This document shows, piece by piece, positions 29,001 to 63,964 of a stretch of 64,000 nt of DNA; within the stretch, counting starts at the first letter, position 1, and every line of letters begins with the position of its first letter. The DNA comes from Candidatus Krumholzibacteriia bacterium (GTDB lineage Bacteria; Krumholzibacteriota; Krumholzibacteriia; Krumholzibacteriales; Krumholzibacteriaceae): the NCBI GenBank assembly GCA_023131975.1, contig JAGLYV010000078.1, positions 3,712 to 67,711 on the forward strand, written 5' to 3'. A model generated the notes under the pieces. It was not told the DNA's origin, made no database searches, and worked only from the letters and a program-made list of their open reading frames with translations. Both the position numbers and the translations under genes were made by a program.

Positions 29001-29016
29001 CTGAAACCACCCTGAC

Positions 29017-30042: not shown

Positions 30043-30057
30043 TGTGCCTCCATTCGT

Positions 30058-30795: not shown

Positions 30796-30880
30796 AGCTG
30801 AACTGTCCCGTCTCAGTTACCGACTAAACTTATGTCTTTAACCGTTAATCTATATGCCCCCTCCTTGTTAAAGACCTCTC

Positions 30881-34884: not shown

Positions 34885-35562
34885 ATGCCAAAAATGACAC
34901 CCAGCCACAAGCCGTTCGAAATCCGGGACTGCGCTCTGGCAGCGGTCGCTACAGGCGTAAAGGCCCAGAACCTGAAAGAATTCTGTGACGCTATCGGGAA
35001 GATCGAACCTGAGAGTATTTACTATCACTTCTGGGGGGGGCTCCTCAAACCGAGGTTCGACGATCCGGAATATCACAACGATTTTGCTGCCTGGGCCAGC
35101 CACGCCCTTCATGACAAGATCCTTGCGGAGAGACTGTCGGTTCTCGACCCATCGGAAATCCCCGATCTCGAAAAAATCCGCGCTGAACTTATTGATATCA
35201 TAGAAGAAAGACTCGACGAAAACGAATATGTGCCTTGGTGCAAACGCGACCAGCAGTTTCATTTCATCACATCACAGATTGTTGTTTTCGATACACGAAA
35301 GACGATTTCAAAAGCCAATGAACTTGTCAAAATCATACCTTCGCTGACTTCCAGCAGCATCTTCTACCATTTTATCGACGCCCGCAGGAGGACATTCGGA
35401 AATATAGACGATTTCAGCAGTTGGCTCTACGGTTTCGCCGACAAGCATTCCGACCTTTGTTGTCTCCTGGCTACGATAGACCCTTTCTTCTCGACGCTCC
35501 CCGAACTGAAGTCTCAGATCGCGGATATAATGAAGGAGTATTTTCAGGGGGGTGAGAAATGA
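34885..35562 (+). CDS. Uncharacterised conserved protein translationally coupled to treT
   Basis: About 225 aa, predicted soluble and helical, with no recognisable catalytic motif. The stop overlaps the treT start (ATGA). The SD AGGAGA lies 7 nt upstream of the ATG at 34885. Confidence 0.5.
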   Translation: MPKMTPSHKPFEIRDCALAAVATGVKAQNLKEFCDAIGKIEPESIYYHFWGGLLKPRFDDPEYHNDFAAWASHALHDKILAERLSVLDPSEIPDLEKIRAELIDIIEERLDENEYVPWCKRDQQFHFITSQIVVFDTRKTISKANELVKIIPSLTSSSIFYHFIDARRRTFGNIDDFSSWLYGFADKHSDLCCLLATIDPFFSTLPELKSQIADIMKEYFQGGEK

Positions 35563-36803: not shown

Positions 36804-36830
36804 AAGATTTTTACGACACAGGTATCTCTC

Positions 36831-37622
36831 GTGAAGGTGATTAGAGAAGGAGTGGATCTTGAAGCCTTTCTGAGGTCCCTGCGCGCCAGAAAGGAAAGAG
36901 TGCTCCTACTCGACTACGACGGAACACTCGCTCCGTTCAGGGTAAAAAGATCGATGGCCTTTCCATACGAAGGAGTAAGGGATCGTATATCAACTATACT
37001 GAGACTGGAAAGATGCAGGACTGTGATTATCTCGGGCAGGAGCATAAAAGATTTGCCCCCGTTGCTCGGCATTCATCCCCTACCCGAGATATGGGGATGC
37101 CACGGATGGGAAAGGCTTTACCCAGATGGAACCTACGCTGGACCAACACTCGGGAATGAGACTGAAAAAGCGTTCAACCTTATCCGGTCATGGGCCGCAA
37201 GTAAAGATATCGGATCACGGTGCGAATCAAAGCCGGCATCGATTGCCGTACACTGGCGCGGAATCGATGAAAGCAAAGCAGAATCAGAGAGAATATCCCT
37301 CGAGACAGATGTGGTTCCGAATCTGAAAGACGCTGGCATAGCAGTTAGAAGATTTGACGGAGGGCTCGAATTTGTCGCCACTGGAAACGACAAGGGGACT
37401 GCGGTGAAAACAATCCTGCGAGAGAGCGGAGATGACGCAGCCATAGTCTACATGGGCGATGACCTTACCGACGAAAAGGCGTTCGAGGCCCTGAGTAAAA
37501 AAGGGCTCTCCCTCCTTGTAAGACCGGAATTCAGGAAGACCGCCGCCGATGCATGGCTTATCCCTCCAGGTGAGCTCCTCGATTTTCTTGATTACTGGAT
37601 AGAAGGATGTGCACTCACATGA
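36831..37622 (+). CDS. otsB: Trehalose-6-phosphate phosphatase (HAD family)
   Basis: Has the HAD motif I LLLDYDGTLAP, a later GDD motif (YMGDDLTDE), and a probable GTG start. Confidence 0.75.
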   Translation: MKVIREGVDLEAFLRSLRARKERVLLLDYDGTLAPFRVKRSMAFPYEGVRDRISTILRLERCRTVIISGRSIKDLPPLLGIHPLPEIWGCHGWERLYPDGTYAGPTLGNETEKAFNLIRSWAASKDIGSRCESKPASIAVHWRGIDESKAESERISLETDVVPNLKDAGIAVRRFDGGLEFVATGNDKGTAVKTILRESGDDAAIVYMGDDLTDEKAFEALSKKGLSLLVRPEFRKTAADAWLIPPGELLDFLDYWIEGCALT

Positions 37623-39109
37623 ACAGCGAAACTGCGGCTTATAAAAGGCTTGTGATAGTATCCAACCGGCTTCCTTTCGTTCTTGAGAAGTGCGGAGACG
37701 GATGGACTGCGATTCCGGGTTCAGGCGGTCTTGTAACGGCCCTTGCCCCCGTACTCAGAAACCGCGGAGGCATATGGATCGGCTGGCCCGGCATCTCCGA
37801 ATCCGCCGACATATCCGAACTGGTCGAAAAAGCCTCAAAAGATGCGGGGTTTTCGATGACACCCGTAATGCTCAACAAGGATGAGGTTCTGAACTATTAT
37901 GTAGGTTTTTCAAATGAAGTCATCTGGCCGCTCTTTCACGATTTTCAGTCCTACTGCAACTTTGACCCCCGTTACTGGGAAATTTATCAAAAGATAAATT
38001 CGAGGTTTGCTTCTGTAATTGCCGAAAATGCCTCCCCGGAGGATTTTATATGGGTTCATGACTATCACCATATCTGTGTGGCCACCGAACTGAGAAAGCT
38101 GAACGTATCCTCCCGGCTCGGATTCTTTCTGCATATACCATTTCCTCCTCTGGACCTCTTTGTCAAGCTCCCCTGGAGATATGAGCTGCTGCGGGCGATG
38201 CTCGACTACGACCTTATAGGATTCCAAACTCTTCGCGACCGACGGAATTTCACACAGTGTCTTGGGGCCTTTGTAAAAAACATCCGCACGAAGGGGACAG
38301 GACGGCTTCTTTCAGTGGAATTTGAAGGACGGACGAGACTCGTAGGAGCATTCCCTGTCAGCATCGATTACCGGGAATTCTCCCAGATGGCCAGGACACG
38401 CGAAGTGGCTGACAGAGGGTGGTTTATTCATGAAGACATCCCGGACAGAAAGATAGTGCTGGGTGTGGATAGACTTGATTATACCAAGGGCATCATTTAT
38501 CGACTCAAGGCTTTTGCGAGACTGTTGGAAAAACACCCTGAGATACACAGGATGATCACACTAGTACAGGTCGTCGTTCCAAGCAGAAGGAACATTCCCA
38601 TATACGAGAACCTCAAGGTTGAGATCGAAAGACTCGTGGGCGAGATCAACGGGAGGTTCACAAAATCAGGATGGGTGCCTATTCATTATATATTCCGATC
38701 CCTGTCAAGGACCGAACTCCTTGCGTATTACCGATCGTCTGAAATAGCTATAGTCACGCCTCTCAAGGACGGCATGAACCTCGTGGCCAAAGAATATTGT
38801 GCTTCGAGCATCGAACAGACAGGGGCGCTTATACTCAGTGAGTTTGCCGGAAGCGCGCATCAGCTCCAAACCGGGGCTTTTATCGTCAACCCCTATCACA
38901 TCGATGAAGTCGCGGATGCGATATACACGGCCTTCAAAATGAATCAAGAAGAACTCAAGGTTCGAATGAAAAAAATGCAGAAATCCATAACCAGGCAGGA
39001 TATATACTGGTGGGTCGATTCATTCCTGAACGCGGCCATATCAGGAAAACTCAAGGATTTTCCTTTTCTCGAAGAACTCAGCCATGATACCGAACCCAAG
39101 TCGGAGTGA
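37619..39109 (+). CDS. otsA: Alpha,alpha-trehalose-phosphate synthase (UDP/ADP-forming), GT20
   Basis: Starts LVIVSNRLP..., with WIGWPG, VHDYHH and [10 protein letters not shown] motifs typical of OtsA. It overlaps the otsB stop. Confidence 0.85.
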
Positions 39110-42360: not shown

Positions 42361-45009
42361 TTACGAGCCGGGACGGATGAGTACTCTTGTAATTTCATAT
42401 CCATTAGCACTGTCCCTGTTTCGCAGGTAGTCGTGGATCTTTCTGTTGGGCAGATACGAGGCTTCCTTCACTGATATTCTGAAAGTATATACTCCGGGAG
42501 ACATCCCCTCGGGGACATGTATCCGGAATTCCTGCCTGACAGGAGAATCACTCCACTGATCAGGAAATGCCCTTCCCCCCATTAATCTTTCGGATCTTGT
42601 CGTCCTGAAAAACATTCCCTGACGTCTTTCGATAATTCTTCTATATTGCTTGTCATACCATTCCCTGTAGAATGCCCCTTTTGGAAAATCGGTATCCAGC
42701 CGCACCGTCCATTCAAGGGGAAGACCGAAATCAACTCCGTGTACAGCCCTCCAGCAGAAAGAACCTTTCAGTGTGTCTCCAGACACGATCTCTCTCGAAT
42801 CCATCCATATACTTTCAAGCCGGATCCCGGTGTCCGGAAACTCTTTTCCGGAAAGAATACGCAAGCTGGAATCGTATGGAATATCTTCGTCGAGGAATGC
42901 TTCCACATCTTCCCCGCATTCAGACGGTCCGGTCACAGAAGTAATAAGTCCATCTGATATCAGATCCCCCGGGCAATCCACATCGACCGAAAAGAGGAGG
43001 AACCTGCCGTTTCGAGATATCTCGTTCAAAACAGGTCCAGCAGATCGGAATTTCAACAGAATATCGTTTGTCGCATCGACTGGCACGGTGCTGAAAAAAT
43101 CACAGGACACTTCTCGCTCCGTATCCACAACCAGATAACCGACTCCCTCTGTTTTCAGCCACTCCAGGCTTTCCCACATGGGTACTACCGGGCTGAAAAG
43201 ATCCCGGGTATTCTCGATCCTTTCTACCGCATGGGGGTCAGATGGGGAACCGTGTTGCCCCAGGATGACAGTCACAAAATGGTCCGTCACAGCTGAAATC
43301 AGATAACTTGTTTCCGGATCCGAACTGATAACGGAGTTCGAAGGCAGCTCTGAAAGAAGACCCTCTATGTCCGAGATCGCTTCTCCTTCATCAGCCTCCG
43401 GCTGACCGGCGAGACTTCCTGTGACCTTATAAGCATCGATAGCAGCGGTCCTCAAAGGTAACGCGATCAAAGCGATCAGGATGATAGCCAGGGTCCTCAC
43501 CAGCAATCTGTTCCACCACGCCACCTGCCCCGCAGTTTTATTGATTCTTCCACTGACCAGGAGACGTAACGAGCCGACAGTCAAAACGGATAGTACACAT
43601 GCCATCGGAGCAGCATCCAGCAGCCTGTAGTACAGGTATCCACTGAGGGATATCAGGAAAGTCGATGTCAGGGGGTTGAAAACGAGGAGTGCTGGCAGAA
43701 GGAACATAAGTCCCGCAAGAAATCCATATTCCCTTATTCTACCTGATATGAAAATGAACGGTGAGAGAAGAGCAATGAAAAAGAAAGAAAGCCCGGAATA
43801 CGACAACACTTCAGCGGGATCCACAACAGAGAGTGTCCTGCCTATCATCAAAAGACCCTGCGCGTGAGTATGTATTTCGTTAAAATCTCTCCCTGAGATC
43901 AATAGTCGAATGATCAGGGGCAGAACAATCGCCACAAGTATGATCGGAAACGCAAATCCAAGTCGCACCCTCCACTTCGCTCCTCTTCCCGGAAACATAC
44001 TGTACAGGAAAAACGAAACCATTGTGATTCCGAGCAACAGGGGAAAGACAATATGGACCGCGACTCCAGCCAGTGACAGGATCGCTGCATAGACAAGGTT
44101 CCATTTCCCACTGCCTTTGATATACCGGATTATGTATCCAGCCGTAAGCCAGTATAGCGCCATCATCATGTTTTTGCTGTAACCGGCTTTGGTCAGCCAC
44201 ACCAGGCCTTCTCCATGTATGAGGAGAATAAGGAAGACAGATGCAAGGATCGTGAGGGCCAGTGACCTCAGGATCTCTCTCGCAAACACCCAGAAGGCTA
44301 ACAGATAGAAGAAAGCAAGAAATGAGGGAAGCATGCGCCAGAGGATCAGGGGAGAAGTATCAGCCATGAATACCCATAGTGCCACAACAGGATGCCATGC
44401 GCCTTTCCGTGGATCAAAAAGGCCCCCGTCACCACCTTTAAAAAATGAATCAGCAGGAAAGAGGCGACCTGTCTCGATACTTCTGCCTATATAGCTCAAA
44501 TGATCGGGGGCATCTGTCGCGATTCCCGTCTCACCACTCCCGAAATAGAATACAAAGAGGAGAAGAAACATCGCAGAGCCAAAAAACAGGAGTGCTTTTC
44601 GTTCGCGTGGAGCCAACTCATCGCCTGTTCCAAGAATCCCTACGAGGTCCCCTCTTTCGCAGGGATAGGGATACCCGCATCTTACAAAGACAAGTACGGC
44701 CATCCCGGCTGTAGCAACAACCCCCATGACAGCGATTACAGGATAATCCAGTCCAGGAATCAAACCGAGGCTCACAAGCAGGATCGAGTAGATCAGCCCC
44801 GAAGAAAAGACCCGTGATAACCCTTCCACGGTCACGGTCAATTTCCCGAAAAATAGATAGTTGATGTATATCCCCGGCAAGACAAAGATAGACAGAAATG
44901 CCAGTGCGACCCCGACTATCTCCAGCCCCGGAATGACTCTGAAAGCGGTCAGAAGGGAAAGACCCAGTATCGATATAGAAATAACAAGTGCAGTCGTTCT
45001 CTTGTTCAT
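42361..45009 (-). CDS. Large GT-C-fold membrane glycosyltransferase candidate (YfhO/ArnT-like: about 14 TM helices plus a roughly 280-aa C-terminal extracytoplasmic domain)
   Basis: 882 aa with long hydrophobic stretches through about residue 600, then a soluble tail. Located downstream of an ArnE-like 4-TM protein and a soluble GT2 polyprenyl-P sugar synthase. This is the same gene logic as csbB-gtcA-yfhO and arnC-arnE/F-arnT. Confidence 0.4.
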   Translation of the reverse strand: MNKRTTALVISISILGLSLLTAFRVIPGLEIVGVALAFLSIFVLPGIYINYLFFGKLTVTVEGLSRVFSSGLIYSILLVSLGLIPGLDYPVIAVMGVVATAGMAVLVFVRCGYPYPCERGDLVGILGTGDELAPRERKALLFFGSAMFLLLFVFYFGSGETGIATDAPDHLSYIGRSIETGRLFPADSFFKGGDGGLFDPRKGAWHPVVALWVFMADTSPLILWRMLPSFLAFFYLLAFWVFAREILRSLALTILASVFLILLIHGEGLVWLTKAGYSKNMMMALYWLTAGYIIRYIKGSGKWNLVYAAILSLAGVAVHIVFPLLLGITMVSFFLYSMFPGRGAKWRVRLGFAFPIILVAIVLPLIIRLLISGRDFNEIHTHAQGLLMIGRTLSVVDPAEVLSYSGLSFFFIALLSPFIFISGRIREYGFLAGLMFLLPALLVFNPLTSTFLISLSGYLYYRLLDAAPMACVLSVLTVGSLRLLVSGRINKTAGQVAWWNRLLVRTLAIILIALIALPLRTAAIDAYKVTGSLAGQPEADEGEAISDIEGLLSELPSNSVISSDPETSYLISAVTDHFVTVILGQHGSPSDPHAVERIENTRDLFSPVVPMWESLEWLKTEGVGYLVVDTEREVSCDFFSTVPVDATNDILLKFRSAGPVLNEISRNGRFLLFSVDVDCPGDLISDGLITSVTGPSECGEDVEAFLDEDIPYDSSLRILSGKEFPDTGIRLESIWMDSREIVSGDTLKGSFCWRAVHGVDFGLPLEWTVRLDTDFPKGAFYREWYDKQYRRIIERRQGMFFRTTRSERLMGGRAFPDQWSDSPVRQEFRIHVPEGMSPGVYTFRISVKEASYLPNRKIHDYLRNRDSANGYEITRVLIRPGS

Positions 45010-48799: not shown

Positions 48800-50065
48800 T
48801 TATCTTCCAAATACAATTCTTGACCACCATCTGTGACACGACTCAGCTCCATCATTCCAATCTCCACCTGAATACGGAAAGCCCCCGGGCGGACTGACAT
48901 CGAGATTCCCTGTCCCATTTCTGGCCAGAACGGCTAGTAAGTGAAGCGACGCTGCTCTGACTATTCCAGCAGGAGTGCTGGAAAATAGCGCCCTCCCCAG
49001 AAATGCCGCGGTCCGAACCATATTCACTCTACCGATCCTGGCAGCAATCGGTTTCCAGGACCTCATCCAGTCTATTATCCCATGCCTGTCGGACCGGAAA
49101 ACGGCAACAGGCTGTAATCCTTTCCATGTCAATGGCACCCTGGCATCCTTGTCTAGAGCTGCCGCGCATTTTCCCCATACCTCGAGAATATCTTCAGCGC
49201 ATTCAAGATACATCTCCCTGAATTCACAATCCTGGACCTCGAGTATATCAAGGGAAGGATTAATCTTGAAGACACTCCATTTTCTCGTTTTCCTGACCAT
49301 AGCTTTCGTAATAAGGTTCCTGCAAGGGATCGAATCACATTTTTCATCGATAGATATCCATCTTTTCTGGTATCCGCTCACATACTCTTTCGAAACTATG
49401 AGTATGCCGGTCAGGATATCGGTATATACCCGCGCGATATTATAGAAAAAACCATAGATCTCATCTTCTCCTTCGGGATTATTCTCCGGCCAGCATGACA
49501 GAAGTGAGGCCATCCTGTTTTCAAGGAGAAGCAATCCCTCACTGACTTCGATATCACCCGTATTGAAAGAAGGCAGCATGTCGAGGATCATTTCTTTCCC
49601 GTATAGAATATGGCCGTGATTCTTCAGTACAAATACTCCGGGAGAAGGAGAAAAAGATCCCAGCTCATCAACATGAACAATGCCGACATCCACCCTTCCA
49701 AGAAAAGTCGCTTCTGGAATCAATCCCTCGCATGCCTCTCCCAGTTCTTTTCTGAGAGCAAGCGATTCAAGAAGCTTCTCCCTAGAATTCAGGACGACAA
49801 GCAGGTCTATATCCGAGAGAAAAATCGGGTTTCCACTCTCAAATGAAATAGTACCCTCTCCAAGGGCGAAACTTCCTCCCAGAATGATCGCCTCTGTATT
49901 ATCAAGTCCGATATTGTCGGAAAGAAGGGATCCGCATTCTCGAAGAAAACCATGAAAATGTTCGAGATACCAGGCAGACGCGGGATTGCCGGAATCTTTC
50001 TCATCCAGCCTGAAAAACCCGCATTCATTATACGGGTCGTTATCGTGATTATCTCTACCTGGCAA
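48800..50065 (-). CDS. Nucleotidyltransferase-fold protein (Pol-beta superfamily; LicD-like phosphotransferase or other NTase) with large C-terminal region
   Basis: ILGGSFALGEGTISFESGNPIFLSDIDLLVVL matches the hG[GS]x(9-13)[DS]hDh NTase signature. A downstream acidic residue lies in VGIVHVDEL. 421 aa. Its start abuts the BY-kinase stop. Confidence 0.45.
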   Translation of the reverse strand: MPGRDNHDNDPYNECGFFRLDEKDSGNPASAWYLEHFHGFLRECGSLLSDNIGLDNTEAIILGGSFALGEGTISFESGNPIFLSDIDLLVVLNSREKLLESLALRKELGEACEGLIPEATFLGRVDVGIVHVDELGSFSPSPGVFVLKNHGHILYGKEMILDMLPSFNTGDIEVSEGLLLLENRMASLLSCWPENNPEGEDEIYGFFYNIARVYTDILTGILIVSKEYVSGYQKRWISIDEKCDSIPCRNLITKAMVRKTRKWSVFKINPSLDILEVQDCEFREMYLECAEDILEVWGKCAAALDKDARVPLTWKGLQPVAVFRSDRHGIIDWMRSWKPIAARIGRVNMVRTAAFLGRALFSSTPAGIVRAASLHLLAVLARNGTGNLDVSPPGGFPYSGGDWNDGAESCHRWWSRIVFGR

Positions 50066-51709: not shown

Positions 51710-53074
51710 TTATTTACTGTCAAGGTCAGGGAAGCTTGAAAGCACCTGGAACCCCAGCGCATCCTCAGCTTCGTTTACATTCTTTATCGAGTGATCCAGA
51801 TTATCCATGAAAAAAGCGAACCCCAGCGCTATGATAAGGCTGAAAAGAGGTCCGAGTGCCATCCGGACATAATCCCTCGTCTTCTTCTGATAAGCCCTGG
51901 TCGCCGGAGCAAGGATCGTAATCGACCATTCGGGATTACTGGCCATATTGATCCTGGAATTCAGATGCTGTTCCTGGAGCAGATCGAGCCTTTCCTCCAG
52001 AATCTCAAGGGTCTTGTTTATCCGGTGAAGCTCGCCCTCCTTCTCCGGATAGGATATCTTTTCCCCGTCCATGACAGCCATGAGGTTGACCAGGTTCTCT
52101 TCACGGCTGGTCACGATATCGAGTCTCTTTTTCTGAATCTCTACAGAGGCCTGTATTTCAACCTCCATGTAGGAAAGCACGTCCTCTATCTGCCACCTCA
52201 CCGTTTTCATCTCCATATGATCATCGGTATATTTTACGGCGAGTTCCGATTCGCTAATTCTCAATTTGACCAACTGTTCCGTATACTGTTCAAGCTTGGA
52301 CTTTCTGTTCAGATCACCCGTAAGCACGCTGGTGATAGTAGCCATCTGTTCGACTCCGACCGACTCGAACTCCTCCAGATTTTCGATGATCCCCACCAGC
52401 TGTATCTTTTCGTCTCTCACCTCATCCAGATCGCTCCGATAACCTTCCAGCCTGGTCAAAGTGTTTCTCACCTGGGACTGAATGTCAACCAGGCCCCATT
52501 TCTTCTCCATCCTTGTTTTCCTCTCTCTCCAGTATTCGATATCGGTTTTTACCGAATTCATCTCGGAAGAGAAAAAATCCTCCATCTCGGGAGGAGTACG
52601 GACCATCTGATAATATTCCTTGTACGAGTTTATTATCGCATTGACCGAGGCTTCACAGAATACGGGATGAAGTCCCGAATATGAGACCCAGAGAACGTTC
52701 GAGGTAGCAATAACACCGGACTGGACCCTTTCAAAGTCTATTTTTTCTGAACTGGAATAACCCTCTGGGAGAAAATCAACGACAAGCTCCCTCGCACGAT
52801 CGATAACGACCTGGGATTTGACCATCTCGATCTGGGAAGATATCTCCTCTTCCCATGTCAGAGTCCGTACATTATTATTGAACACGCCACTCGCTTCCCC
52901 ACGCCTGACGAGCATTTTCCCTGTCGATTCGAATATGGCCGACTCTCTCAGATTCAGGCCGATGACAAGGGTCGTGGAAACAAGGACAACACCCAGAATA
53001 ATCCATTTTCTTCTGAAAATGACTTCGAGAAAATCCTTTATGGTCGATTCTTTCTGTACAGTTTTTTTTTCCAT
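51710..53074 (-). CDS. Polysaccharide co-polymerase / chain-length determinant (Wzz/GumC/EpsF-like PCP)
   Basis: Has an N-terminal TM (WIILGVVLVSTTLVIGL), a long coiled-coil periplasmic region and a C-terminal TM (LGPLFSLIIALGFAFFM). Confidence 0.75.
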   Translation of the reverse strand: MEKKTVQKESTIKDFLEVIFRRKWIILGVVLVSTTLVIGLNLRESAIFESTGKMLVRRGEASGVFNNNVRTLTWEEEISSQIEMVKSQVVIDRARELVVDFLPEGYSSSEKIDFERVQSGVIATSNVLWVSYSGLHPVFCEASVNAIINSYKEYYQMVRTPPEMEDFFSSEMNSVKTDIEYWRERKTRMEKKWGLVDIQSQVRNTLTRLEGYRSDLDEVRDEKIQLVGIIENLEEFESVGVEQMATITSVLTGDLNRKSKLEQYTEQLVKLRISESELAVKYTDDHMEMKTVRWQIEDVLSYMEVEIQASVEIQKKRLDIVTSREENLVNLMAVMDGEKISYPEKEGELHRINKTLEILEERLDLLQEQHLNSRINMASNPEWSITILAPATRAYQKKTRDYVRMALGPLFSLIIALGFAFFMDNLDHSIKNVNEAEDALGFQVLSSFPDLDSK

Positions 53075-55030: not shown

Positions 55031-56200
55031 GTGCCGATGACCGATAGCAACGACAAGATAAGGATCTGCATGATGATGCCGAAATGCCATATCGGCGGAG
55101 CCGAAGTGCAGGTCATGGGTCTTCTGAAGAATATAGATAGATCCAGATTCGCCGTATCCCTCTGCCTCTTTAACCATGGTATCAAGAGCATGGAAATAGA
55201 AGCAGCGAAGCATGCTGCGGACGTTCAATATCTCGGTTTCAGATGGAGATACTTCCCCGTCGTCTTTCTGAAGATGGTGAAATACCTTCGACACGGTAGA
55301 TTCGATGTCGTTCACGCTCATCTCGCCTGGGCTGGTCTTGTCGGAAGGTTAGCGGCCTGGGTTGCCGGCGTTCCAGTCCGTATCACGACCGAACATGGGA
55401 AGGGACTCTGGAAATCACCTTTCCAGGTGTTGATCGAGAAAGCGATGAACAGGATCACTGATATGAGGATATGTGTAAGCAGGGATATCTTCAGAATCCG
55501 AAGAGACCGTGAAGGCACTCCGGAAGAAAAACTGGTCTATATACCCAACGGAGTCGATCCTGAAGCCTTTAGCGCAAGTGGTGCAAAAAAAGGAATTATG
55601 GAGGAATTCGACTGGTCCCCCTCTGCCCCACTGATCCTGTCGATCGGCAGGATCGTAGAGGCAAAGAACTACCCCCTGCTGGTAGAAGCTTTTTCAATAC
55701 TACTTAAGAGCGTTCCGCACGCGAAATGTATCATTGTGGGGGAAGGGCCTTGCCAGCCCGAAGTGGAGGCAGCTATCGAAAGATACAGTGTTGGAGCCAG
55801 TATAAGGCTTGCCGGGACGAGAAGAGATATTCCGGCCTTCTTCGATGCTGCTGACACCTTTGTTCTTTCATCGGTCAGGGAAGGCCTTCCCGTCACTCTC
55901 CTTGAGGCGATGGCCGCAGGAACTCCCATTGTAGCAACCGATGCAGGAGGTATCCCGGAAGCTGTTACGGACGGCGAAAGCGCAATCCTCGTACAGTCTG
56001 GAGATGCGGGATCACTTGCAGAAGCGATGGCTATGGTTCTCGGAGATGATGCGACTGCGGACAGAATCTCTGCCTCGGCTCAAAGTGTAGTAAGGGAAAG
56101 ATTCAGTATCCAAAACACAACCCGCCGCGTAGAAGAGATCTATATTAGCAAACTGGTTTCTAAAAAGATAAAGCCGCCAGACCAGCTGACAAGAAAATAG
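55031..56200 (+). CDS. GT4 family glycosyltransferase
   Basis: 389 aa GT-B (IGGAEVQV N-domain; EAMAAGTPIVATDAGGIPE C-domain). GTG or ATG start (55031 or 55037). Confidence 0.8.
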   Translation: MPMTDSNDKIRICMMMPKCHIGGAEVQVMGLLKNIDRSRFAVSLCLFNHGIKSMEIEAAKHAADVQYLGFRWRYFPVVFLKMVKYLRHGRFDVVHAHLAWAGLVGRLAAWVAGVPVRITTEHGKGLWKSPFQVLIEKAMNRITDMRICVSRDIFRIRRDREGTPEEKLVYIPNGVDPEAFSASGAKKGIMEEFDWSPSAPLILSIGRIVEAKNYPLLVEAFSILLKSVPHAKCIIVGEGPCQPEVEAAIERYSVGASIRLAGTRRDIPAFFDAADTFVLSSVREGLPVTLLEAMAAGTPIVATDAGGIPEAVTDGESAILVQSGDAGSLAEAMAMVLGDDATADRISASAQSVVRERFSIQNTTRRVEEIYISKLVSKKIKPPDQLTRK

Positions 56201-56285: not shown

Positions 56286-58007
56286 ATGGTATTGCCTCTT
56301 TCGCCCTCGCTGGTAAGAAATGTCATATATCCCGTGTACAGGGGGTTTAGGGGAGACAGGCTTTTATCGACCCTCAATGAGTTGGAGAAGAACCAGTGGC
56401 TCTCGCTCCCCGAGATCGAGGATATCCAGTGGCGACGAATGAGTTCTTTCCTCAAAGAGATAACAGCCCACGTCCCCTATTACATGGATATTTTCAATGA
56501 ACTGGGGTTGAAGCCCGGGGACATTCAGAATCCGAACGATTTCATGCAATTACCTCTACTGGATAAATACGTAATCCGCCAGGAAGGCAAGCGGATGGTG
56601 ACCAACGATCCCGTGAAAAAGGGATACAAGGCGAGTACGGGAGGATCGACAGGAGAACCGCTCTATTTTTCCAATGACCTTTCCGCAGCTCCTATTCGGA
56701 GAGCGAATACCGCGAGAGGACACAGAATGGCCGGAATCGACATCGGTGATAAGCAGGCCTTTGTCTGGGGCTTTCCATTCGACATTCCACTCAAGGAGCG
56801 GATGGCAAGCACGGTCAGGAACTATTTTGCCAATATCACCTACCTTTCATCTTTCAATCTTTCAGAAAAAGCGATGGCGGATTACGCGGCGAAGCTAAAG
56901 AGGTACAAGCCGGCCCTTGTGATCGGATACCCTTCGGCCGTAACCTTCTTTGCCGAATTCCTCCGTATGAGGAATATTACCGGAATCCGGCCAAAAGCGG
57001 TCATCTCAAGTGGGGAAAAAATGTTCCCGCAGCAGAGAGAAACGCTCGAAGAAGTCTTCGGGTGCAGGGTCTTCGACCGCTATGGCAGTAATGAAGTCGG
57101 GAATGTCGCTCATGAATGCGATCAGCATAAGGGCCTTCATATATTCTCGGATCTTATCTACCTCGAGATACTCAGAGAAAACGGCCGTCCAGCCGAACCG
57201 GGCGAAGTAGGAGAACTTGTTATTACTGACCTGCTCAACCATTACATGCCGTTCGTCAGGTACAGGACCGGCGACATGGCAATCCTCAGCAGCAGGACAT
57301 GCGCATGCGGCAGGGGTCTACCGCTTCTCGAGCGGATAGAGGGCAGAACCTTCGACAATATAATGACTCCCGACGGACGGTCGATTGGCGGATACTTCTG
57401 GACTTATCTCTCAAGAGTGGTTCCAGGAATAAAGCAGTTCCAGGTCGAGCAAAAGCAACGAAGCTCCCTGGTCTTTAGAATTGTCCCGGGACCGGACTGG
57501 AACGACTCGTACAAGGAACGACTCATCAGCGAGATTAGCGAGAACATGGGCGAATCGGTCAAGGTAAAGATCGACAGGGTCGATGAGATTCCGCTCACTC
57601 CGGCGGGTAAGTTCAAATTCATCATCTCGAAGGTCGAGGAAAGACTCGTAGTTAAGTCAAAGATCCACAAGGCTGTCGTGACCAGAGTTGATCCGAACCA
57701 CATCGACTGCGTGATCATAGACGAGGATGTTCTCGAGATGAGCAACATAGCTCCCTGCGAAAGGGTCCTTATTGTCGACAACACCAATGGCGCAAGAGTC
57801 GAAACATTTGTCCTGAAAGGGAAAAAGGGAAGCGGAGAGCTGATATCCTGTGGAGCGGTAAGCAAACAGATCCACGATGGGGACGAGATAATTCTCATGG
57901 CTTTTACCTGGTCGGAAGAGACGCACGACCAGTTCACCAATATTCTTGTCGACGAAAAGAACAGATTCGTCCGTTACCTGACAGAAAAGGCGGGCGACAA
58001 GATCTAG
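56286..58007 (+). CDS. CapK/PaaK-like adenylate-forming enzyme fused to a C-terminal PanD-like (aspartate-1-decarboxylase fold) domain
   Basis: Residues 1 to about 450 are PaaK-like (STGGSTGEPL P-loop, etc.). Residues about 457 to 573 align across the full PanD length (KxH, TNGAR, GSGxLIxCGA, GDEIIL.AF). See the matching finding for the substituted catalytic residues. Confidence 0.6.
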   Translation: MVLPLSPSLVRNVIYPVYRGFRGDRLLSTLNELEKNQWLSLPEIEDIQWRRMSSFLKEITAHVPYYMDIFNELGLKPGDIQNPNDFMQLPLLDKYVIRQEGKRMVTNDPVKKGYKASTGGSTGEPLYFSNDLSAAPIRRANTARGHRMAGIDIGDKQAFVWGFPFDIPLKERMASTVRNYFANITYLSSFNLSEKAMADYAAKLKRYKPALVIGYPSAVTFFAEFLRMRNITGIRPKAVISSGEKMFPQQRETLEEVFGCRVFDRYGSNEVGNVAHECDQHKGLHIFSDLIYLEILRENGRPAEPGEVGELVITDLLNHYMPFVRYRTGDMAILSSRTCACGRGLPLLERIEGRTFDNIMTPDGRSIGGYFWTYLSRVVPGIKQFQVEQKQRSSLVFRIVPGPDWNDSYKERLISEISENMGESVKVKIDRVDEIPLTPAGKFKFIISKVEERLVVKSKIHKAVVTRVDPNHIDCVIIDEDVLEMSNIAPCERVLIVDNTNGARVETFVLKGKKGSGELISCGAVSKQIHDGDEIILMAFTWSEETHDQFTNILVDEKNRFVRYLTEKAGDKI

Positions 58008-58031: not shown

Positions 58032-59213
58032 TCACCAGGGCCTTATGGGTATCTTCGCCAGGATTTTCAGTATCAGTCGAGGAGGAGTCCACAGGTTCAA
58101 AATCTTTTCAAGACAGATCCTGCCCATGTCGTCCATCCGCATCTTAAGATGAGCCAATAAGGTACCTGATTCACACCCGGCACGTATTCGGGTATTTTTG
58201 TTCTTTCTACGCAATCCCGGCCAGTCCACCGACTGTTTTACATCCTCAATGGTGACTGGACGCGATTCGAGGCTGCTGCTGGAAAGGGTCAGAAGTTCCC
58301 TCCCCCTTTCACTGTGTACAATCACGAGAGAAAGACCTCCACCCACTTCACCGGAACGGACTATATTCCACGGATCAGCCACAGTGATATCCGCGCCCGC
58401 CCCCATGGGATTCGGGCAGAGCCTGCAAGCAGGCAGCGTCCAGAGACCTTTCCCGAAGGGAAGAGCCGCAGCATCGGCCCACTCAATCGTACGGTCCTCT
58501 ATCTCGATCTTGCCCGGCCACCCTTTCCCGCGGTACGACACCTTGCCCTCACCCTCACGGTCCAGTCCCATTCGTCCGCGCATAAAGCGCGTAAACCCCT
58601 CGTTTTTTTGCTGCTTGCAAAAAACTCCGATCATGATGAGATCATCGCGTTTTCCCCCGTAGAAATTGTCCAGAGCGATAAGTTGGCAATTAGTGCCCAC
58701 GACAATCAACTTCCCTTCGCGGGGCCGGGAAAACTCGAGGTTCTCCAGTACCGGGACCGGTCGATAGGTCGAGTTTGCAAAGTCTTCCACTCGAAACCCC
58801 CGGGAAACATATCCACCCTTCACCCATGGGAAAAAAGTATCGTCGACAAGGCAGTAAGCCTCATCAACGATACCGGTATTGAGGGCAGATTCGATAAGGG
58901 TACGGATCACTCCACCCGATGATGAGTTACGTCGCCGGTCCGGATCGGTCGAGTGGCTGAGCCATGAGGAAGCGATCGAAGTCCATGACATTTCCTTCCA
59001 GGGATTAGCTGACAGGAGAGGAACGGGACATATCCTGACGCAGAGACCACAGGATATACAGCTCGCTTCATCCCAGATTATCCTGAATCGGCCATCTTCG
59101 ATCCAGTCGCGCGAAAGAGCTCCCGATGCACATCCTGCGAGGCACGCGCCACACTGGCAACAGCGATCGACTTCGAAATGGATCTTATCATCCTTACCGT
59201 ACGAGATCATCAA
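58032..59213 (-). CDS. FrhB/FdhB-like Fe-S flavoprotein (pyruvyl-transferase-associated type)
   Basis: 2x[4Fe-4S] motifs (CCQCGACLAGC; CISCGLCVRICP) followed by an FrhB-like body. Overlaps the upstream pyruvyl transferase by 20 nt. Confidence 0.65.
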   Translation of the reverse strand: MMISYGKDDKIHFEVDRCCQCGACLAGCASGALSRDWIEDGRFRIIWDEASCISCGLCVRICPVPLLSANPWKEMSWTSIASSWLSHSTDPDRRRNSSSGGVIRTLIESALNTGIVDEAYCLVDDTFFPWVKGGYVSRGFRVEDFANSTYRPVPVLENLEFSRPREGKLIVVGTNCQLIALDNFYGGKRDDLIMIGVFCKQQKNEGFTRFMRGRMGLDREGEGKVSYRGKGWPGKIEIEDRTIEWADAAALPFGKGLWTLPACRLCPNPMGAGADITVADPWNIVRSGEVGGGLSLVIVHSERGRELLTLSSSSLESRPVTIEDVKQSVDWPGLRRKNKNTRIRAGCESGTLLAHLKMRMDDMGRICLEKILNLWTPPRLILKILAKIPIRPW

Positions 59214-60477
59214 GACGCTCCATAGACTGACGGACGTGGCTCTTTTTTTCTTCTATTACATTCGACAGGTGGTCTTTCCATCGTTGTCTTTCAAGCCACA
59301 TCCTGTCGAAAGCTCCCAGTGTCCACTCCGCGGTGAACTCCTCGATGTCGACCGAGAACTCCTCGAGCCCCAGTGACCTCATGTATTCGCGCACCTTAAA
59401 AAGGTAATTGACAGATATAGTCGGCACACAGGCGCCCGTTGAAAGGATGCAAGCGTGCATCCTGGTGGTGATGTTAAGGTCGGAGCAGGCTAGCATCCCT
59501 TTCAAAGCTGCTGGTGTAGGGAGCTGCTCTATGACCAGCACTTCCTTAGCAAGCTTCATCCTGCTGCGGATCTCCAGAGAGGTAGCCAAATCGTCCTCCC
59601 TGCAGCCATGGACCGGGTAGTTGGTCGGATAGAGGACAATTCTGACTCCGTATTCCGATATTAACGAATCGGCCAGCAAGGCCATCTCATCCAGATAGGA
59701 CTCGTAGTTGCTGAATTCGGTCTCGATCCTGTTCCGGAAATAACTCCAGCGCATCGCCGAGATTCCGACAATACTGTCGTTTTCATCCGCTCCGATAATC
59801 TGCAGTGCTTCTTCCCGCGGGATCCATTCCTGAAGAACAGCCATGTCGATAGTCTCGACAAGATTGGTGGCATCATCCCCTGTAAGTACGCGGGTCGCTT
59901 TCGTCGACTCTTCATCTCTCGTGTATATAAGGTCGACACTTTTCAGGACAGGCCTGGCAAGCCGCTTCGACCATCCAAAAATGAATGGACCGATCGTCGA
60001 CGGAAATATCACCATCTTTTTCCCCAGTTTCCGTACAAGGGAGAGAGTGTACAAGGAGAATACCACGTTTTTGAAGAACTTGTCGTTTATACGCTCAGCA
60101 CCAACACTTATCACCAGGTCAGCATCTATGAATGCAGCAAGTTTTCTGGCGAAGGGAACCTTTCCCCTGTCGATAGAGGATTGCGGGAGCACCGATACCG
60201 CCGTCATACAGACAGTCATCCAGAAGGATGTCTTTAAAAGCCAAAAAATCTGCTTGAGCCGAGCTTGAAGGAAGGGATATTCGAAGATGTCTTTTATTGT
60301 CTCGATTCCATAAAGGTCATGAAAAACTTTCGGAACATGAGCCATGACCTTTATCGTGCTTCCTGGAAAGCGTTCTCTCAGCAGCTTTATTGCGTTCTCC
60401 ACAAGCGCGCAGGAACCGACATTCGCGTCAGTGTATGCCTCGATAATCAAAATATTCAAAATCTCTTTATTATTCAT
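59194..60477 (-). CDS. Polysaccharide pyruvyl transferase (CsaB/WcaK family)
   Basis: 427 aa. The N-terminus NILIIEAYTDANVGSCALVENAIKLL is typical of PS_pyruv_trans. It is classically paired with an FrhB-like gene. Confidence 0.65.
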   Translation of the reverse strand: MNNKEILNILIIEAYTDANVGSCALVENAIKLLRERFPGSTIKVMAHVPKVFHDLYGIETIKDIFEYPFLQARLKQIFWLLKTSFWMTVCMTAVSVLPQSSIDRGKVPFARKLAAFIDADLVISVGAERINDKFFKNVVFSLYTLSLVRKLGKKMVIFPSTIGPFIFGWSKRLARPVLKSVDLIYTRDEESTKATRVLTGDDATNLVETIDMAVLQEWIPREEALQIIGADENDSIVGISAMRWSYFRNRIETEFSNYESYLDEMALLADSLISEYGVRIVLYPTNYPVHGCREDDLATSLEIRSRMKLAKEVLVIEQLPTPAALKGMLACSDLNITTRMHACILSTGACVPTISVNYLFKVREYMRSLGLEEFSVDIEEFTAEWTLGAFDRMWLERQRWKDHLSNVIEEKKSHVRQSMERLDDLVR

Positions 60478-60489
60478 ATCCCTTTTCTG

Positions 60490-61602
60490 TCACCTGTCCA
60501 TTTTCCCTGCCAAATGTGGTATTTGTTCAAACAGGTCTTCGTAAAGGGGGACGATTGATTCGATCCCAAAACGTTGCTGCGCTTTTTTTGCAATACTGCC
60601 TCTGTCAAACATGAAGTCCCCTGCCTTTTCGATGCTGACAGTCAATGCCTCAATGTCGCCGGAAGGAACAATGTGACCATTCTCGCCTTCCTCGATGAGT
60701 TCGTCGATGCCTCCAGGACATGCAAAGGCGATCACGGGACATCCCAGGGACAACGCTTCAACGAGGACATTGGGAAACCCCTCATATCTGGAACTAAGAA
60801 CGAAGGCAGCGGCGTGGCGAACAAACGGATAGGGGTTCGATACAAAGCCGTGAAATATTATTCTATCGTCAATTCGAAGTTCTCGCGACCGCGCCTCGAG
60901 CGAGCCTTTTAGTCCGCCTTCACCGAGAATATGCAGGTAGATTTCAGGGTCGCGTACCTTTGCCATCGCATCCAGGAGCATGTCGAACCCTTTTTGCGGA
61001 TGGAGGCGTCCCATAGCCACGATGTTTACCTTACCGATAGAGAAGCTTTCAGGACAGTCTCCGGCAGCTTGATCAATGATCCTGCCGGTGTCGGCAGGAT
61101 TGTTTATCGTGACTATCCTTTCCAGAGGAACATGGTATGTTCTGTGGACGTCACCTCTCATGTCATTTGACTGGCAGATGATCCGGTCCAGATACCGATA
61201 AGAAAGCCTATACATCCATGGGGCGTTCCAGAAACTTTTGGCAGTCGAGATCCTCATCGAAGGGATACCGCTTTCTCTGCCATAATAGACAGGATCTGCT
61301 TTCCTTACCATGAGGCGGGAAAATCCGAGTACCATATTCATGTAACATATAGTCCCTATGACAACATCCGGACGCACAGTGTCAATCAGCCCTGGCAGAC
61401 GAAAAAATGCGCCGGCCAGACTGGTCCGCATATCGTAAAGTTCTATATCTTCGGAAAGATCCCGGAGGAATACTCCTTTTTTTCTTAATAGAGCCAGATG
61501 GATCGAGAACCGCCGCCGATCTATGTTGTTCATAATGTGAACAAATACTCTCTCGGCTCCTCCTCCTTCCAATGTCGGGATACAGAAAAGAACTTTTTTC
61601 AT
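60490..61602 (-). CDS. GT4 family glycosyltransferase
   Basis: MKKVLFCIPTLEGGGAERV..., with a C-domain EALSLGCPVIAF. Start at the internal ATG. Confidence 0.8.
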   Translation of the reverse strand: MKKVLFCIPTLEGGGAERVFVHIMNNIDRRRFSIHLALLRKKGVFLRDLSEDIELYDMRTSLAGAFFRLPGLIDTVRPDVVIGTICYMNMVLGFSRLMVRKADPVYYGRESGIPSMRISTAKSFWNAPWMYRLSYRYLDRIICQSNDMRGDVHRTYHVPLERIVTINNPADTGRIIDQAAGDCPESFSIGKVNIVAMGRLHPQKGFDMLLDAMAKVRDPEIYLHILGEGGLKGSLEARSRELRIDDRIIFHGFVSNPYPFVRHAAAFVLSSRYEGFPNVLVEALSLGCPVIAFACPGGIDELIEEGENGHIVPSGDIEALTVSIEKAGDFMFDRGSIAKKAQQRFGIESIVPLYEDLFEQIPHLAGKMDR

Positions 61603-61606
61603 CGTA

Positions 61607-62824
61607 TCAGATCTCACCCCACCCACTTGGCGAAAGGAGGCTAAGAATGACATATTTTAACTTGTATGCCCTCAACTTCCATAATGCCGTTGTTTCTCCG
61701 TTGAAAAGTCTCAATATGTTGAGGAAAAATCCAGGATCGGTCCTGTGGATCAGACGGCCCTTCCAATGCCATGGTGCTCCACACCCCGTCCTGTTAATCT
61801 CTTTCGGGTCCTCACCGTAAAGATTTTTCCTTCCTTCGGCCTGGAAAAGAGAAGTCGTGGCGAGGTATCCCAGCTCCCCGGCCAGGTCGAAAAGTCCCTG
61901 GTTCATCCCGCCTCCAGGCCAGCATAGGTAATCGACCCGCCTCCCGAGTGATTCCTCGAGTATCCTTTTTGAATCTGCCAGTTCGGATCTGACTCGCGCG
62001 GCGAATTCCGCATCCGTCTCGTAGCTGTCCGCCGCACGCGGGCTTTTACCGGCGATCGTCGACAGCTGCTCGCGCCAGTCGTTTCTATTGAAAAAATCGG
62101 CACTGCCGTTTTCGCTTACGTAATCGGCGAGCTTTGAATCTAGACTCTGGTCCTGGAAATATTTTTTCGTGACAAGTGATTTTCCATGTTCATAGACCGG
62201 GGTTCCGTAAGGGATTCTGTCTTCCAGCCGCGCGCTCATGTATTCGTGTTTCCTGTCGGGCATCCTGTTCCACGAGAGCCATGGAGGAGGATTGTAACCA
62301 TCGACTCCGGAAGGCCTGTGAAAATCGATTATCCGGGGGCCGTTGAAATACCATGTATGTGTCGCCGCGTGGCTCTGGATTTCGATCGCCCCGTCCTCCT
62401 CCATCTTTCTCATTTCGCATATGGAGAGAAAACCGCGGTTCTCAAGTTCCTCCACCGACAGGTCTCCGTTCCACACGTCATCGAGGGTAGGGCGCGGAAT
62501 CGGAGAAGGGTCGATGAAATCGGTCGTCATCCAGACAACCGCTTTGTGCCCGTATTTCCTGATGAGAGGAAAGGCGTATGTCCAGTTGTTCAGGTAACCA
62601 TCATCGAATGTCAATATGAAGGGGTTTTCCGGAAGGGAAACATTATCCTTCATGTGGGCATGCAACATATTGAGGGTAATCGCGTTCCAACCACGGTCCC
62701 TGAGTATCCTCATCTGACCCTCGAAAACATCGTGCCGCACGAAGAGGTGCGGCCATAGCCATCCTGGAACGGCGGGACCGACCCCATGATACATAACAAC
62801 AGGTATACCTTTAATTCTCATCAC
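61607..62824 (-). CDS. Polysaccharide deacetylase (CE4/NodB homology) family protein
   Basis: Has the LTFDDGY motif (FILTFDDGYLNNW) plus downstream His motifs. About 405 aa, like the EPS-locus deacetylase subfamily. Confidence 0.7.
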   Translation of the reverse strand: MMRIKGIPVVMYHGVGPAVPGWLWPHLFVRHDVFEGQMRILRDRGWNAITLNMLHAHMKDNVSLPENPFILTFDDGYLNNWTYAFPLIRKYGHKAVVWMTTDFIDPSPIPRPTLDDVWNGDLSVEELENRGFLSICEMRKMEEDGAIEIQSHAATHTWYFNGPRIIDFHRPSGVDGYNPPPWLSWNRMPDRKHEYMSARLEDRIPYGTPVYEHGKSLVTKKYFQDQSLDSKLADYVSENGSADFFNRNDWREQLSTIAGKSPRAADSYETDAEFAARVRSELADSKRILEESLGRRVDYLCWPGGGMNQGLFDLAGELGYLATTSLFQAEGRKNLYGEDPKEINRTGCGAPWHWKGRLIHRTDPGFFLNILRLFNGETTALWKLRAYKLKYVILSLLSPSGWGEI

Positions 62825-63016: not shown

Positions 63017-63964
63017 CTATGACATAAGAGCTGAATACAGTATCGGAATAAGGATCTCGTGATGTCCCGTGATAGCGATCGAGCGCCCTCCGAACGATGC
63101 CGGGCGATTCAGGACATTTTCTCCCGGCCTGTAATGCTGAACCATGTCGAGGTTGCAGGTCGTTATCCTCGAGAAGGATGCCCCCTTGTTTCTCGCCACG
63201 CTGAAAGCCTTGAGAAATACCTCAGGAAGGATCACGGCAGATCCGGCATTGATCACTGTTCCTCCCTCAAGGCCCAGACTCTCGACCCGTCCGCAGAATA
63301 TCCTGAAATCCCTGTATGAAAGCCCTCCCCATGCTGAGCCGTCATATGACGGATGCTGGTTTATGATATCCGTGCCGATCGCGATATGGACTGTCACCGG
63401 AATATCATGCTCGTATGCTGACGCAAAAAGGCTCTTGTCGCGATTCGGAGCTTTTTTCCGGCTGATATACCTGCCGATCGCCTCCCCCAGTCCCAGGCCC
63501 TCAACGACACCATCATCAACGGCTTCGGCAAGAAGCGCCGCGGTCTCTTCAGTAAAACCGAATATTCCTTTCTTGAGATTCTCGGCTACATCCTCGGAAG
63601 TCTTCCCGAAAAAGGCGATCTCGATATCATGTATAGCGCAGGCTCCATTTACGGCAAGAGAAGTCATGAGACCATTCTTCATCATCTCGATCAGATATAG
63701 AGGGAGTCCACATTTGATCACGTGAGCTCCGATCATCCAGATGATCTCCTGATTTTCGGAAGAACGTGCTTCTTCCATCGACTTTACGATCTCCTTTATC
63801 CTGCTGCCGGCAAGCTGGTCGGGCAGCGAATCGAACCATTCCCTGAACCCGCTGCTGCCCTTGATCGGTTTTCCATAGTCATTCAGGGATACCTTGCTCG
63901 TCCTCTCAACAAACGGTATTGTCCGAATTCCCGAAAAGTCCGACTCCTTATATTTACCTGTCAT
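63017..63964 (-). CDS. Deoxyhypusine-synthase-like family protein (uncertain)
   Basis: The pattern IIWMIGAHVIKCGL...LMTSLAVNGACAIHDIE and later ...DIPVTV..., ...GTVINAGSAV... resembles the DHS-like fold. The assignment is weak. Confidence 0.35.
   Translation of the reverse strand: MTGKYKESDFSGIRTIPFVERTSKVSLNDYGKPIKGSSGFREWFDSLPDQLAGSRIKEIVKSMEEARSSENQEIIWMIGAHVIKCGLPLYLIEMMKNGLMTSLAVNGACAIHDIEIAFFGKTSEDVAENLKKGIFGFTEETAALLAEAVDDGVVEGLGLGEAIGRYISRKKAPNRDKSLFASAYEHDIPVTVHIAIGTDIINQHPSYDGSAWGGLSYRDFRIFCGRVESLGLEGGTVINAGSAVILPEVFLKAFSVARNKGASFSRITTCNLDMVQHYRPGENVLNRPASFGGRSIAITGHHEILIPILYSALMS

Follow-up and report, generated by a model that had tools for sequence, protein, structure and literature searches.

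The 64,000-nucleotide stretch analysed here (the window) comes from the forward strand of contig JAGLYV010000078.1 (positions 3,712 to 67,711) in the Candidatus Krumholzibacteriia bacterium assembly GCA_023131975.1. At positions 56286..58007 (+ strand) it carries a gene whose product joins an adenylate-forming ligase of the CapK/PaaK type to a C-terminal domain resembling aspartate 1-decarboxylase (PanD). This open reading frame (ORF) is uninterrupted over 573 codons, encodes 573 amino acids plus a stop, and corresponds to MCK4538584.1 (exact match, P0001). Across the family, the PanD-like domain has lost one set of PanD active-site residues, while a small standalone paralogue, usually encoded by the next gene, keeps that set and has lost two residues that the fused domain retains. 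This reciprocal pattern may reflect a decarboxylase divided between two proteins, one of which is attached to the ligase.

A CapK/PaaK-type ligase fused to a degenerate PanD-like domain

The adenylate-forming module, delimited by Foldseek matches, motifs, and conservation, spans residues 1-450 (56286..57635, +) and is predicted to adopt a PaaK-like two-domain fold (full-length AlphaFold2 (AF2) model, predicted local distance difference test (pLDDT) 86). Its top Foldseek match was PaaK1 (2y27, E-value 4e-28), with further matches to BT_0428 (4rvn), 2-hydroxyisobutyryl-CoA ligase (HCL), ClxA, NatL2, and AjiA1; the matching structures include 6hdx, 9s45, and 6tm4. The CapK_C domain (PF27533) is present on P0001 and nearly all homologues in precomputed Pfam annotation. 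Scores on the relevant NCBIfam models all fell below cut-off, both for the DVU_1553 family AMP-dependent ligase (NF045666, 156.7 vs. 300) and for the two PaaK models (TIGR02155, 92.9 vs. 646.3; NF041878, 110 vs. 700). We assign the module to the PaaK/CapK branch of ANL enzymes and not to the phenylacetate-CoA ligases, a placement based on sequence and predicted structure. The first-pass annotation, made from the DNA letters alone, had proposed a CapK/PaaK-family ligase within a polysaccharide locus, and the Foldseek matches, the CapK_C domain, and the neighbouring genes (see below) bear this out.

The expected adenylation motifs are in place, namely the P-loop T118-GGSTGEP, Y266-GSNE, T328-GD, the hinge G353-R, and the motif-A10 lysine Lys442. 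Since these are invariant or nearly so within the fusion family, and conserved as well in 139 ligase-only relatives, the ligase looks catalytically competent. A separate Cys/His cluster (residues 278-285 and 339-342; 57117-57140 and 57300-57311, +) was recognized from conservation: Cys278, His285, Cys339, and Cys341, in the motifs AHEC...GLH and C-x-C-G, are invariant across the fusion family and also found in 135-138 of the 139 ligase-only relatives, which span many phyla. This looks like a putative Cys3His metal site typical of this CapK-like branch. The names under which the protein is stored, "aspartate 1-decarboxylase" at NCBI and "phenylacetate-CoA ligase" at JGI, are both misleading, and neither fits the protein.

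The PanD-like domain, a predicted double-psi beta-barrel, covers residues 454-565 (57645..57980, +) according to Pfam and the AF2 model. Residues 454-561 align to positions 4-114 of the 115-position Asp_decarbox profile (PF02261) with 88.9 bits (gathering score 25; E-value 2.8e-25). On the NCBIfam panD equivalog TIGR00223 (cut-off 106), however, the full protein reaches only 72.4 bits and the isolated domain 77.0. The best phmmer match in the PDB was Mycobacterium tuberculosis PanD (2c45, E-value 2.4e-17), aligned without gaps over 94 residues. The first-pass annotation had described an ungapped alignment over the full length of PanD; this holds for the first ~94 residues, but the C-terminal part of the domain needs small gaps when aligned to Thermus thermophilus PanD. 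A domain-only AlphaFold model built from a 24-sequence alignment (pLDDT 89.6) superposes on unprocessed PanD (1pqf, 2c45, 1ppy) with template modelling (TM) scores of 0.80-0.88 and a root-mean-square deviation of ~1.9 Å, and its best Foldseek matches are uncleaved PanD zymogens. The predicted fold thus agrees significantly with that of aspartate decarboxylase.

Aligned to 2c45, the domain departs from PanD at the residues central to its chemistry. The self-cleavage and pyruvoyl site Gly24-Ser25 is replaced by Asp474-Cys475 (57705..57710; HYVGSV to NHIDCV), and Tyr58 by Phe508 (TYAI to TFVL). Retained are Lys9 and His11 (K459 and H461, in the codons K459-I460-H461 at 57660..57668) as well as Arg54 and Thr57 (R504 and T507, which lie with F508 at 57795..57809; all +). 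These are the substitutions and retentions that had been read from the sequence at the outset.

A search for homologues gave 120 clusters at 90% identity; 117 of them were near full length with the same architecture, usually of exactly 573 residues and with identities down to 48%. They derive from NCBI, JGI, ENA, and Logan assemblies; those with a named source belong to Candidatus Krumholzibacteria/Krumholzibacteriota and Latescibacterota, and an independent Logan assembly of SRR13892599 (L086) encodes the identical protein. Because 117 clusters from independent assemblies share the architecture, the fusion is, on this comparative evidence, not an assembly artefact; together with the open frame and the Pfam score, this upholds the fusion as originally proposed.

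Residue conservation across these 117 homologues is sharply divided. Lys9, His11, and Arg54 are kept in every one (117/117 each) and Thr57 in 107, whereas Gly is never found at position 24, which is occupied by Asp (114) or Glu (3). Position 25 holds Cys (82), Gly (20), or Ser (15), position 58 mostly Phe (102, with Tyr in just 3), and variation is seen at positions 22 and 72. The domain therefore appears to be a homologue of PanD but not its equivalent, and by its residues cannot act alone as a canonical pyruvoyl decarboxylase, as had been anticipated; a canonical Gly-Ser pair with Tyr58, had it been usual among relatives, would have pointed to an ordinary PanD. A first alignment of 26 sequences, with only Cys or Ser at position 25, had suggested a conserved nucleophile there, an idea dropped given the glycine in 20 of the 117.

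A 565-residue subclade (L002, L094, L096; P0108-P0119) is less degenerate, with Asn72-Gly-Ala kept, Ser25 frequent, and Tyr58 occasional, but it still has Asp24; judging from these residues, it may be an evolutionary intermediate. In an exhaustive HMMER search with the domain, no second architecture carrying this degenerate domain was identified among the best matches, and at 50% clustering the whole fusion family collapsed to about three representatives.

A linked standalone paralogue with the complementary residue pattern

Downstream of the fusion gene lies, in 16 of 19 evaluable loci, a gene for a small standalone Asp_decarbox paralogue, here termed PanD' (20 distinct fusion loci were counted, of which L005 is cut by a contig end). 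It follows immediately in 15 of the 20 distinct loci, with gaps of 55-167 nt (1 nt in L096), and in L002 it lies 3.7 kb downstream. The linkage also holds when traced from PanD': three clusters of it, on long contigs, mapped to six places, five with the fusion gene directly upstream and the sixth (L170) with an unannotated 347-residue gene, cut by the contig end, in that position. Searches of GTDB genomes and JGI metagenomes listed 160 loci, mostly ligase-only relatives with ~17 fusions, and the ligase-only loci serve as a negative control for the linkage: among the loci listed, no PanD match was found by tblastn in L012-L084, and no PanD-domain match in 145 loci.

The genome of the window appears to hold both a paired and an unpaired copy. 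A paralogue of the window protein, MCK4538311.1 (P0004; 80% identical to MCK4538584.1), is flanked by MCK4538310.1, a fusion of a family 4 glycosyltransferase (GT4) with a family 4 carbohydrate esterase (CE4), and by MCK4538312.1 (PanD', 121 residues) and MCK4538313.1 (a site-2 protease), the accessions MCK4538310 to MCK4538313 being consecutive. The closeness of these accession numbers to that of the window protein indicates a single metagenome-assembled genome (MAG) submission. The genome is thus one with a full cassette plus a second copy, that of the window, and PanD' alone was not duplicated.

In the 120 PanD' clusters, position 9 is Met (115), Val (3), Ile (1), or a gap (one) and never Lys, and position 11 is Leu (79), Met (34), or Val/Phe/Ile (7) and never His. 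Position 86, Ile in canonical PanD, is Asp in all 120. The remainder of the active site is nearly untouched, with Arg54, Thr57, Tyr58, Asn72, and Gly24 in 120 clusters each and Tyr22, Ser25, Gly73, and Ala74 in 119 each. More distant PanD' sequences from the fetched loci include one with Ala9 and Phe11 (L002) and two that retain His11 (L004 and L093). As a reference, among the best 150 PanD cluster representatives from a library of 1.84 billion proteins, 110 had the exact canonical 13-position signature (K9-H11-Y22-G24-S25-R54-T57-Y58-N72-G-A-A-I86), and among these 150 the only standalone proteins with exceptions at positions 9 and 11 in an otherwise intact site were those of the PanD' group. 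In its aligned residues, the PanD' pattern is the mirror image of that of the fused domain.

Two further observations concern the PanD' gene and its surroundings. In L003 (8082-8282) and L096 (2226-2582) PanD' has in-frame stop codons, and the near-identical L004 copy is intact; the stops are either sequencing errors or signs of decaying copies. In at least 11 fusion loci the gene after PanD' encodes a site-2 protease (Peptidase_M50, usually with CBS domains; e.g., L001 12217-13344, L087 5804-6949, and L173 6396-7517), often with the same aldo-keto reductase and S9 peptidase genes behind it; this protease is absent beside the window copy. This linkage could reflect function or merely conserved synteny.

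A possible split aspartate decarboxylase serving the ligase

PanD is a stable homotetramer (PMC3314653) whose active site lies where two subunits meet (PMC3314653, PMC6969166). One subunit provides the pyruvoyl group (Pyr25), Thr57, Tyr58, and the Ala74/Ala75 backbone, and the adjacent subunit provides Lys9* and Arg54*; of the substrate's carboxylates, Lys9* forms an ion pair with the alpha-carboxylate and Arg54* holds the other one (PMC3314653, PMC6969166). Thr57 is needed for activation (PMC3975893), and according to PDB titles Escherichia coli PanD with H11A (1PT1) is unprocessed, while S25C (1PYU, E. coli) and N72A (3TM7) are processed. Projected onto this interface, the alignments indicate that in the fused domain the "trans" set survives and the "cis" set is gone, and that PanD' retains the "cis" set but is without Lys9 and His11.

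From the observed architecture, residue patterns, and linkage we infer a heteromer as the simplest explanation for losses that are reciprocal and strictly conserved in two tightly linked genes, and we hold it to be a slightly better than even bet. Since Lys9 and Arg54 act in trans, and PanD' has lost Lys9 and His11, a split-enzyme half is preferred for the fused domain over the carrier or plain ligand-binding module suggested in the first-pass annotation. That this domain contributes the non-catalytic half to a heteromeric aspartate decarboxylase, feeding beta-alanine to the ligase for a glycan amide, has in our judgement about an even chance of being right.

Under this proposal, PanD' would dock on the PanD-like domain of the ligase in a mixed oligomer, and complete active sites would form only where PanD' (cis) meets the fused domain (trans). 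Maturation of PanD' may also depend on the His11 of its partner, because H11A PanD is unprocessed, Thr57 is required, and PanD' is devoid of His11. L-aspartate would then be decarboxylated to beta-alanine on the ligase itself, which would spend ATP on an amide bond between this product and a glycan or glycoside assembled by the neighbouring GT4. Free L-aspartate is the most likely substrate, with beta-alanine as the product, since Arg54 is invariant in both partners. More tentatively, and with a probability we put a little short of even, PanD' may obligately need the ligase-fused "trans" pseudo-subunit, being inactive and perhaps unprocessed before docking, so that beta-alanine would arise only at the ligase and end in a new beta-alanyl glycoconjugate.

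The nature of the acceptor can be approached from the gene neighbourhood. A recurrent order is GT4 (stp2/TIGR03088-like), CE4 deacetylase (400 residues, PgaB-N-like), fusion gene, and PanD'; in the paralogous locus of the window MAG the GT4 and CE4 are fused in one 779/797-residue protein, and the closest ligase-only relatives (36-41% identity) also lie beside the same deacetylase. Two routes to an amide may be considered. In the first, an N-acetylhexosamine would be added, its acetyl group removed by the CE4 enzyme, and the freed amine N-acylated with beta-alanine. In the second, the carboxylate of a sugar (uronic acid) would be adenylated and attacked by the amine of beta-alanine, as inferred for VpsH, a CapK/PaaK-like protein genetically required in Vibrio cholerae VPS for a glycine amide on the carboxylate of lipid-linked N-acetylgulosaminuronic acid (GulNAcA) (PMC13463779). 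N-acylation of a de-N-acetylated amino sugar is at least as likely as carboxylate amidation because CE4 and GT4 genes are frequent neighbours, and we lean slightly towards it. No UDP-sugar 6-dehydrogenase, which would have supported the uronic-acid model, was found among the scanned window ORFs (15958 onward). Of the ATP-dependent amidation proposed in the first-pass annotation, an amide between an amino acid and a sugar is still the best functional guess, with VpsH, the one polysaccharide enzyme of the CapK/PaaK-like kind known to have functional data, as a genetic precedent, but activation of a sugar carboxylate is not favoured over N-acylation. The beta-alanyl product could be a decoration of exopolysaccharide (EPS) in the window locus and, by analogy with bacillithiol-like logic, a small beta-alanyl-aminosugar glycoside where the GT4-CE4-ligase-PanD' cassette stands alone.

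Two relatives show further genes of related kinds near the fusion. In L091 (10206-12771), the fusion and PanD' genes are directly followed by another CapK-like gene, ligase-only and with 34% identity, and by another CE4 deacetylase (40%), a tandem ligase/deacetylase module with no PanD part. In the EPS-embedded locus L002, a FemAB-like Acetyltransf_6 gene (PF13480; 11900-13003) follows the fusion gene, another hint of amino acids attached to this class of polysaccharide.

Alternative explanations

Several observations weigh against a split enzyme of this kind. Three loci (L007, L089, and the window) have no PanD' nearby; a tblastn search of the window with three PanD' sequences matched only the fused domain, and on the parent contig a further 10 kb downstream (L085) are likewise devoid of PanD'. 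The window copy would have to borrow PanD' in trans. A single PanD' would agree with a small, diffusible partner shared by two ligases, but it counts just as much against the hypothesis for the window gene. PanD' of relatives scores 111 on the NCBIfam panD model, above the cut-off of 106, and it retains Arg54, so that a PanD' homotetramer might function by itself, if with weaker or altered catalysis. The papers cited here cover action in trans for Lys9 and Arg54 but not for His11 or Ile86, and PMC4537548 holds nothing on Lys9 or His11. On the ligase side, four fusion and PanD' pairs (L169, L171, L172, and L174) occur without GT4 or CE4 neighbours, and the VpsH precedent would by analogy point to activation of a sugar carboxylate.

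Several of these points would be accommodated if the two proteins worked independently. PanD' would be a self-sufficient homotetrameric decarboxylase in which K9M, H11L, and I86D are tolerated or tune specificity, and the fused domain would be only a binding pocket for aspartate or beta-alanine, in which Lys9, His11, Arg54, and Thr57 hold carboxylates and Asp474 pairs with the amino group in place of the pyruvoyl group, and which passes the amino acid to the ligase without touching PanD'. The equivalog-level score of PanD' and the three fusion loci with no PanD' nearby are consistent with this, as are the conservation of the ligand contacts K9, R54, and T57 and the near-invariance of Asp24 in the fused domain. 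However, the PanD pocket is formed between two subunits, so that a lone domain would be missing half of it unless self-associating, and neither the loss from PanD' of residues that the fused domain keeps, seen in 120 of 120 clusters, nor the tight pairing of the genes is explained. We consider independent function unlikely, though deserving of serious consideration.

Alternatively, the PanD-like domain could merely oligomerize the ligase through the PanD tetramer interface or anchor it to another protein. PanD forms a stable tetramer, and many dead enzyme domains turn into scaffolds. A pure scaffold would nevertheless not need pocket residues, whereas K9, H11, and R54 appear to be under purifying selection throughout the family (117/117), which makes a purely structural role improbable.

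Still less credible is cryptic self-processing, in which cleavage at Asp474-Cys475 through an N-to-S acyl shift would give the domain its own pyruvoyl group and make it a decarboxylase with an unusual site. The processing of E. coli PanD S25C (PDB title of 1PYU), the retention of Thr57, itself needed for processing, in 107 of 117 homologues, and Cys or Ser at position 25 in 97 of 117 all agree with it. Yet 20 of 117 homologues carry Gly at position 25, and Asp or Glu always takes the place of Gly24. In 102 of 117 the proton donor Tyr58 has become Phe, conservation is lacking at Tyr22 and Asn72, and the domain model best matches uncleaved zymogens. Processing through Cys, which the first-pass annotation had raised as an option, is therefore unlikely as a property of the family.

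Finally, an assembly or frameshift error joining a ligase gene to a panD gene can be dismissed with near certainty, given one architecture in 117 clusters from four independent sources at identities down to 48%, an identical protein in an independent assembly, and a separate canonical-looking panD-type gene that follows the fusion gene in most loci.

The polysaccharide locus of the window

The window neighbourhood is a polysaccharide locus that resembles EPS loci of the XrtA/PEP-CTERM kind. GT4s are accompanied there by a priming transferase (Bac_transf), an export protein (Poly_export), a tyrosine kinase, an ATPase of XrtA/PEP-CTERM type, a flippase, a pyruvyl transferase, and a CE4 deacetylase. 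The XrtA marker models scored 321 (ATPase TIGR03015, cut-off 324.5), 121 (kinase TIGR03018, cut-off 231), and 118 (export TIGR03027, cut-off 180). Of the genes closest to the fusion, an stp2-like (TIGR03088-like) GT4 (55031..56200, +) ends 85 nt upstream and shares 66% identity with the GT4 portion of the paralogous cassette. The CE4 polysaccharide deacetylase (61607..62824, -; 405 residues) is 53% identical to that of the paralogous cassette and belongs to the family found directly upstream of the fusion gene in most relatives; a second GT4 gene (60490..61653, -) overlaps it. Beside the deacetylase, positions 63017-63964 (-) encode a GSU2086 family protein (NF052581, 388 bits, cut-off 250).

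Several other features of the locus are recorded here. At 58032-60477, an FrhB/FdhB-like gene with 4Fe-4S Fer4 domains overlaps the polysaccharide pyruvyl transferase gene; because of this transferase, the EPS of the window is probably pyruvylated. A second FrhB/FdhB-like gene (17410-18711) has FrhB matches only. A hexapeptide acetyltransferase, a GFO/IDH/MocA oxidoreductase, a second Bac_transf priming transferase, and a DegT aminotransferase (28362-31987) resemble by sequence a WbpB/E/D-like diamino sugar set, and a trehalose set (TreT-like glycosyltransferase, trehalose phosphatase, and GT20 trehalose-6-phosphate synthase; 34882-39109) adjoins a DUF5752 gene. Three large ORFs of the EPS locus have no Pfam match, namely 42361-45009 (-, 882 residues), 48800-50065 (-, 421 residues), and 51710-53074 (-, 454 residues), the last with only weak similarity to chain-length determinants (EpsF, 49 bits). 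A DUF3108 gene lies just past the end of the window (L085).

Comparison with known systems

Literature searches found no description of the fusion, of CapK combined with PanD, of a PanD pseudoenzyme or heteromer, of the PanD' variant, or of beta-alanyl polysaccharides, consistent with the earlier impression that the architecture had not been reported. If the proposed split is correct, sorting of the PanD half-sites onto two proteins would represent a clean case of subfunctionalization at a shared interface, and would show a pseudoenzyme domain both gating and channelling a metabolite. It would also offer a way into the CapK/VpsH class of glycan-tailoring ligases, which is poorly understood, and from it one would predict that glycans of the uncultured Krumholzibacteriota and Latescibacterota carry a new modification, a beta-alanine amide.

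On the ligase side, the best structural matches are PaaK (2Y27, 2Y4O) and the amide or ester ligases NatL2, AjiA1, and ClxA, which share the adenylation motifs. Identity to PaaK-family members is however only 19-23%, no aromatic-acid catabolic genes lie near the fusion, and the fusion adds the Cys3His cluster and the PanD-like domain. VpsH of V. cholerae and CapK of Staphylococcus aureus are likewise ANL-type, PaaK-like ligases of polysaccharide loci, and the CapK_C domain is found on the fusion. They are set beside it here by description; neither has been reported with a PanD-like domain or a PanD partner, and their biochemistry is so far putative.

The cassette logic of GT4, N-deacetylase, and ATP-dependent ligase recalls bacillithiol and mycothiol synthesis (BshA/MshA GT4, BshB/MshB deacetylase, and BshC/MshC ligase). 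The cassette GT4 nevertheless matches these models only weakly and below cut-off (BshA, 115 vs. 273.7; MshA, 84 vs. 462), the deacetylase is a CE4 enzyme with a PgaB-like N-terminal domain and not of the LmbE type, the ligase family differs, and the amino acid would be beta-alanine instead of cysteine. The resemblance is one of logic only, by analogy.

The decarboxylase side compares most directly with PanD itself (PF02261; M. tuberculosis 2C45, E. coli 1PPY), with which the fused domain shares fold, sequence homology (E-value 1e-26), and Lys9, His11, Arg54, and Thr57. It differs in being devoid of Gly24-Ser25, Tyr58, Tyr22, and Asn72, in its fusion to a ligase, and in its pairing with a complementary paralogue. 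For such a pairing, the closest parallel is the S-adenosylmethionine decarboxylase (AdoMetDC) and prozyme of Trypanosoma brucei, a pyruvoyl decarboxylase partnered with an inactive paralogue that is proposed to be needed for activity and, according to the abstract, relieves autoinhibition (PMC5201418). The two systems share a dead paralogue co-encoded with an active-type one (here in 16 of 19 evaluable loci), the heteromer in the present case being the one proposed above. The fold is different, and here the dead copy would supply active-site residues in trans while being fused to the next enzyme of the proposed pathway.

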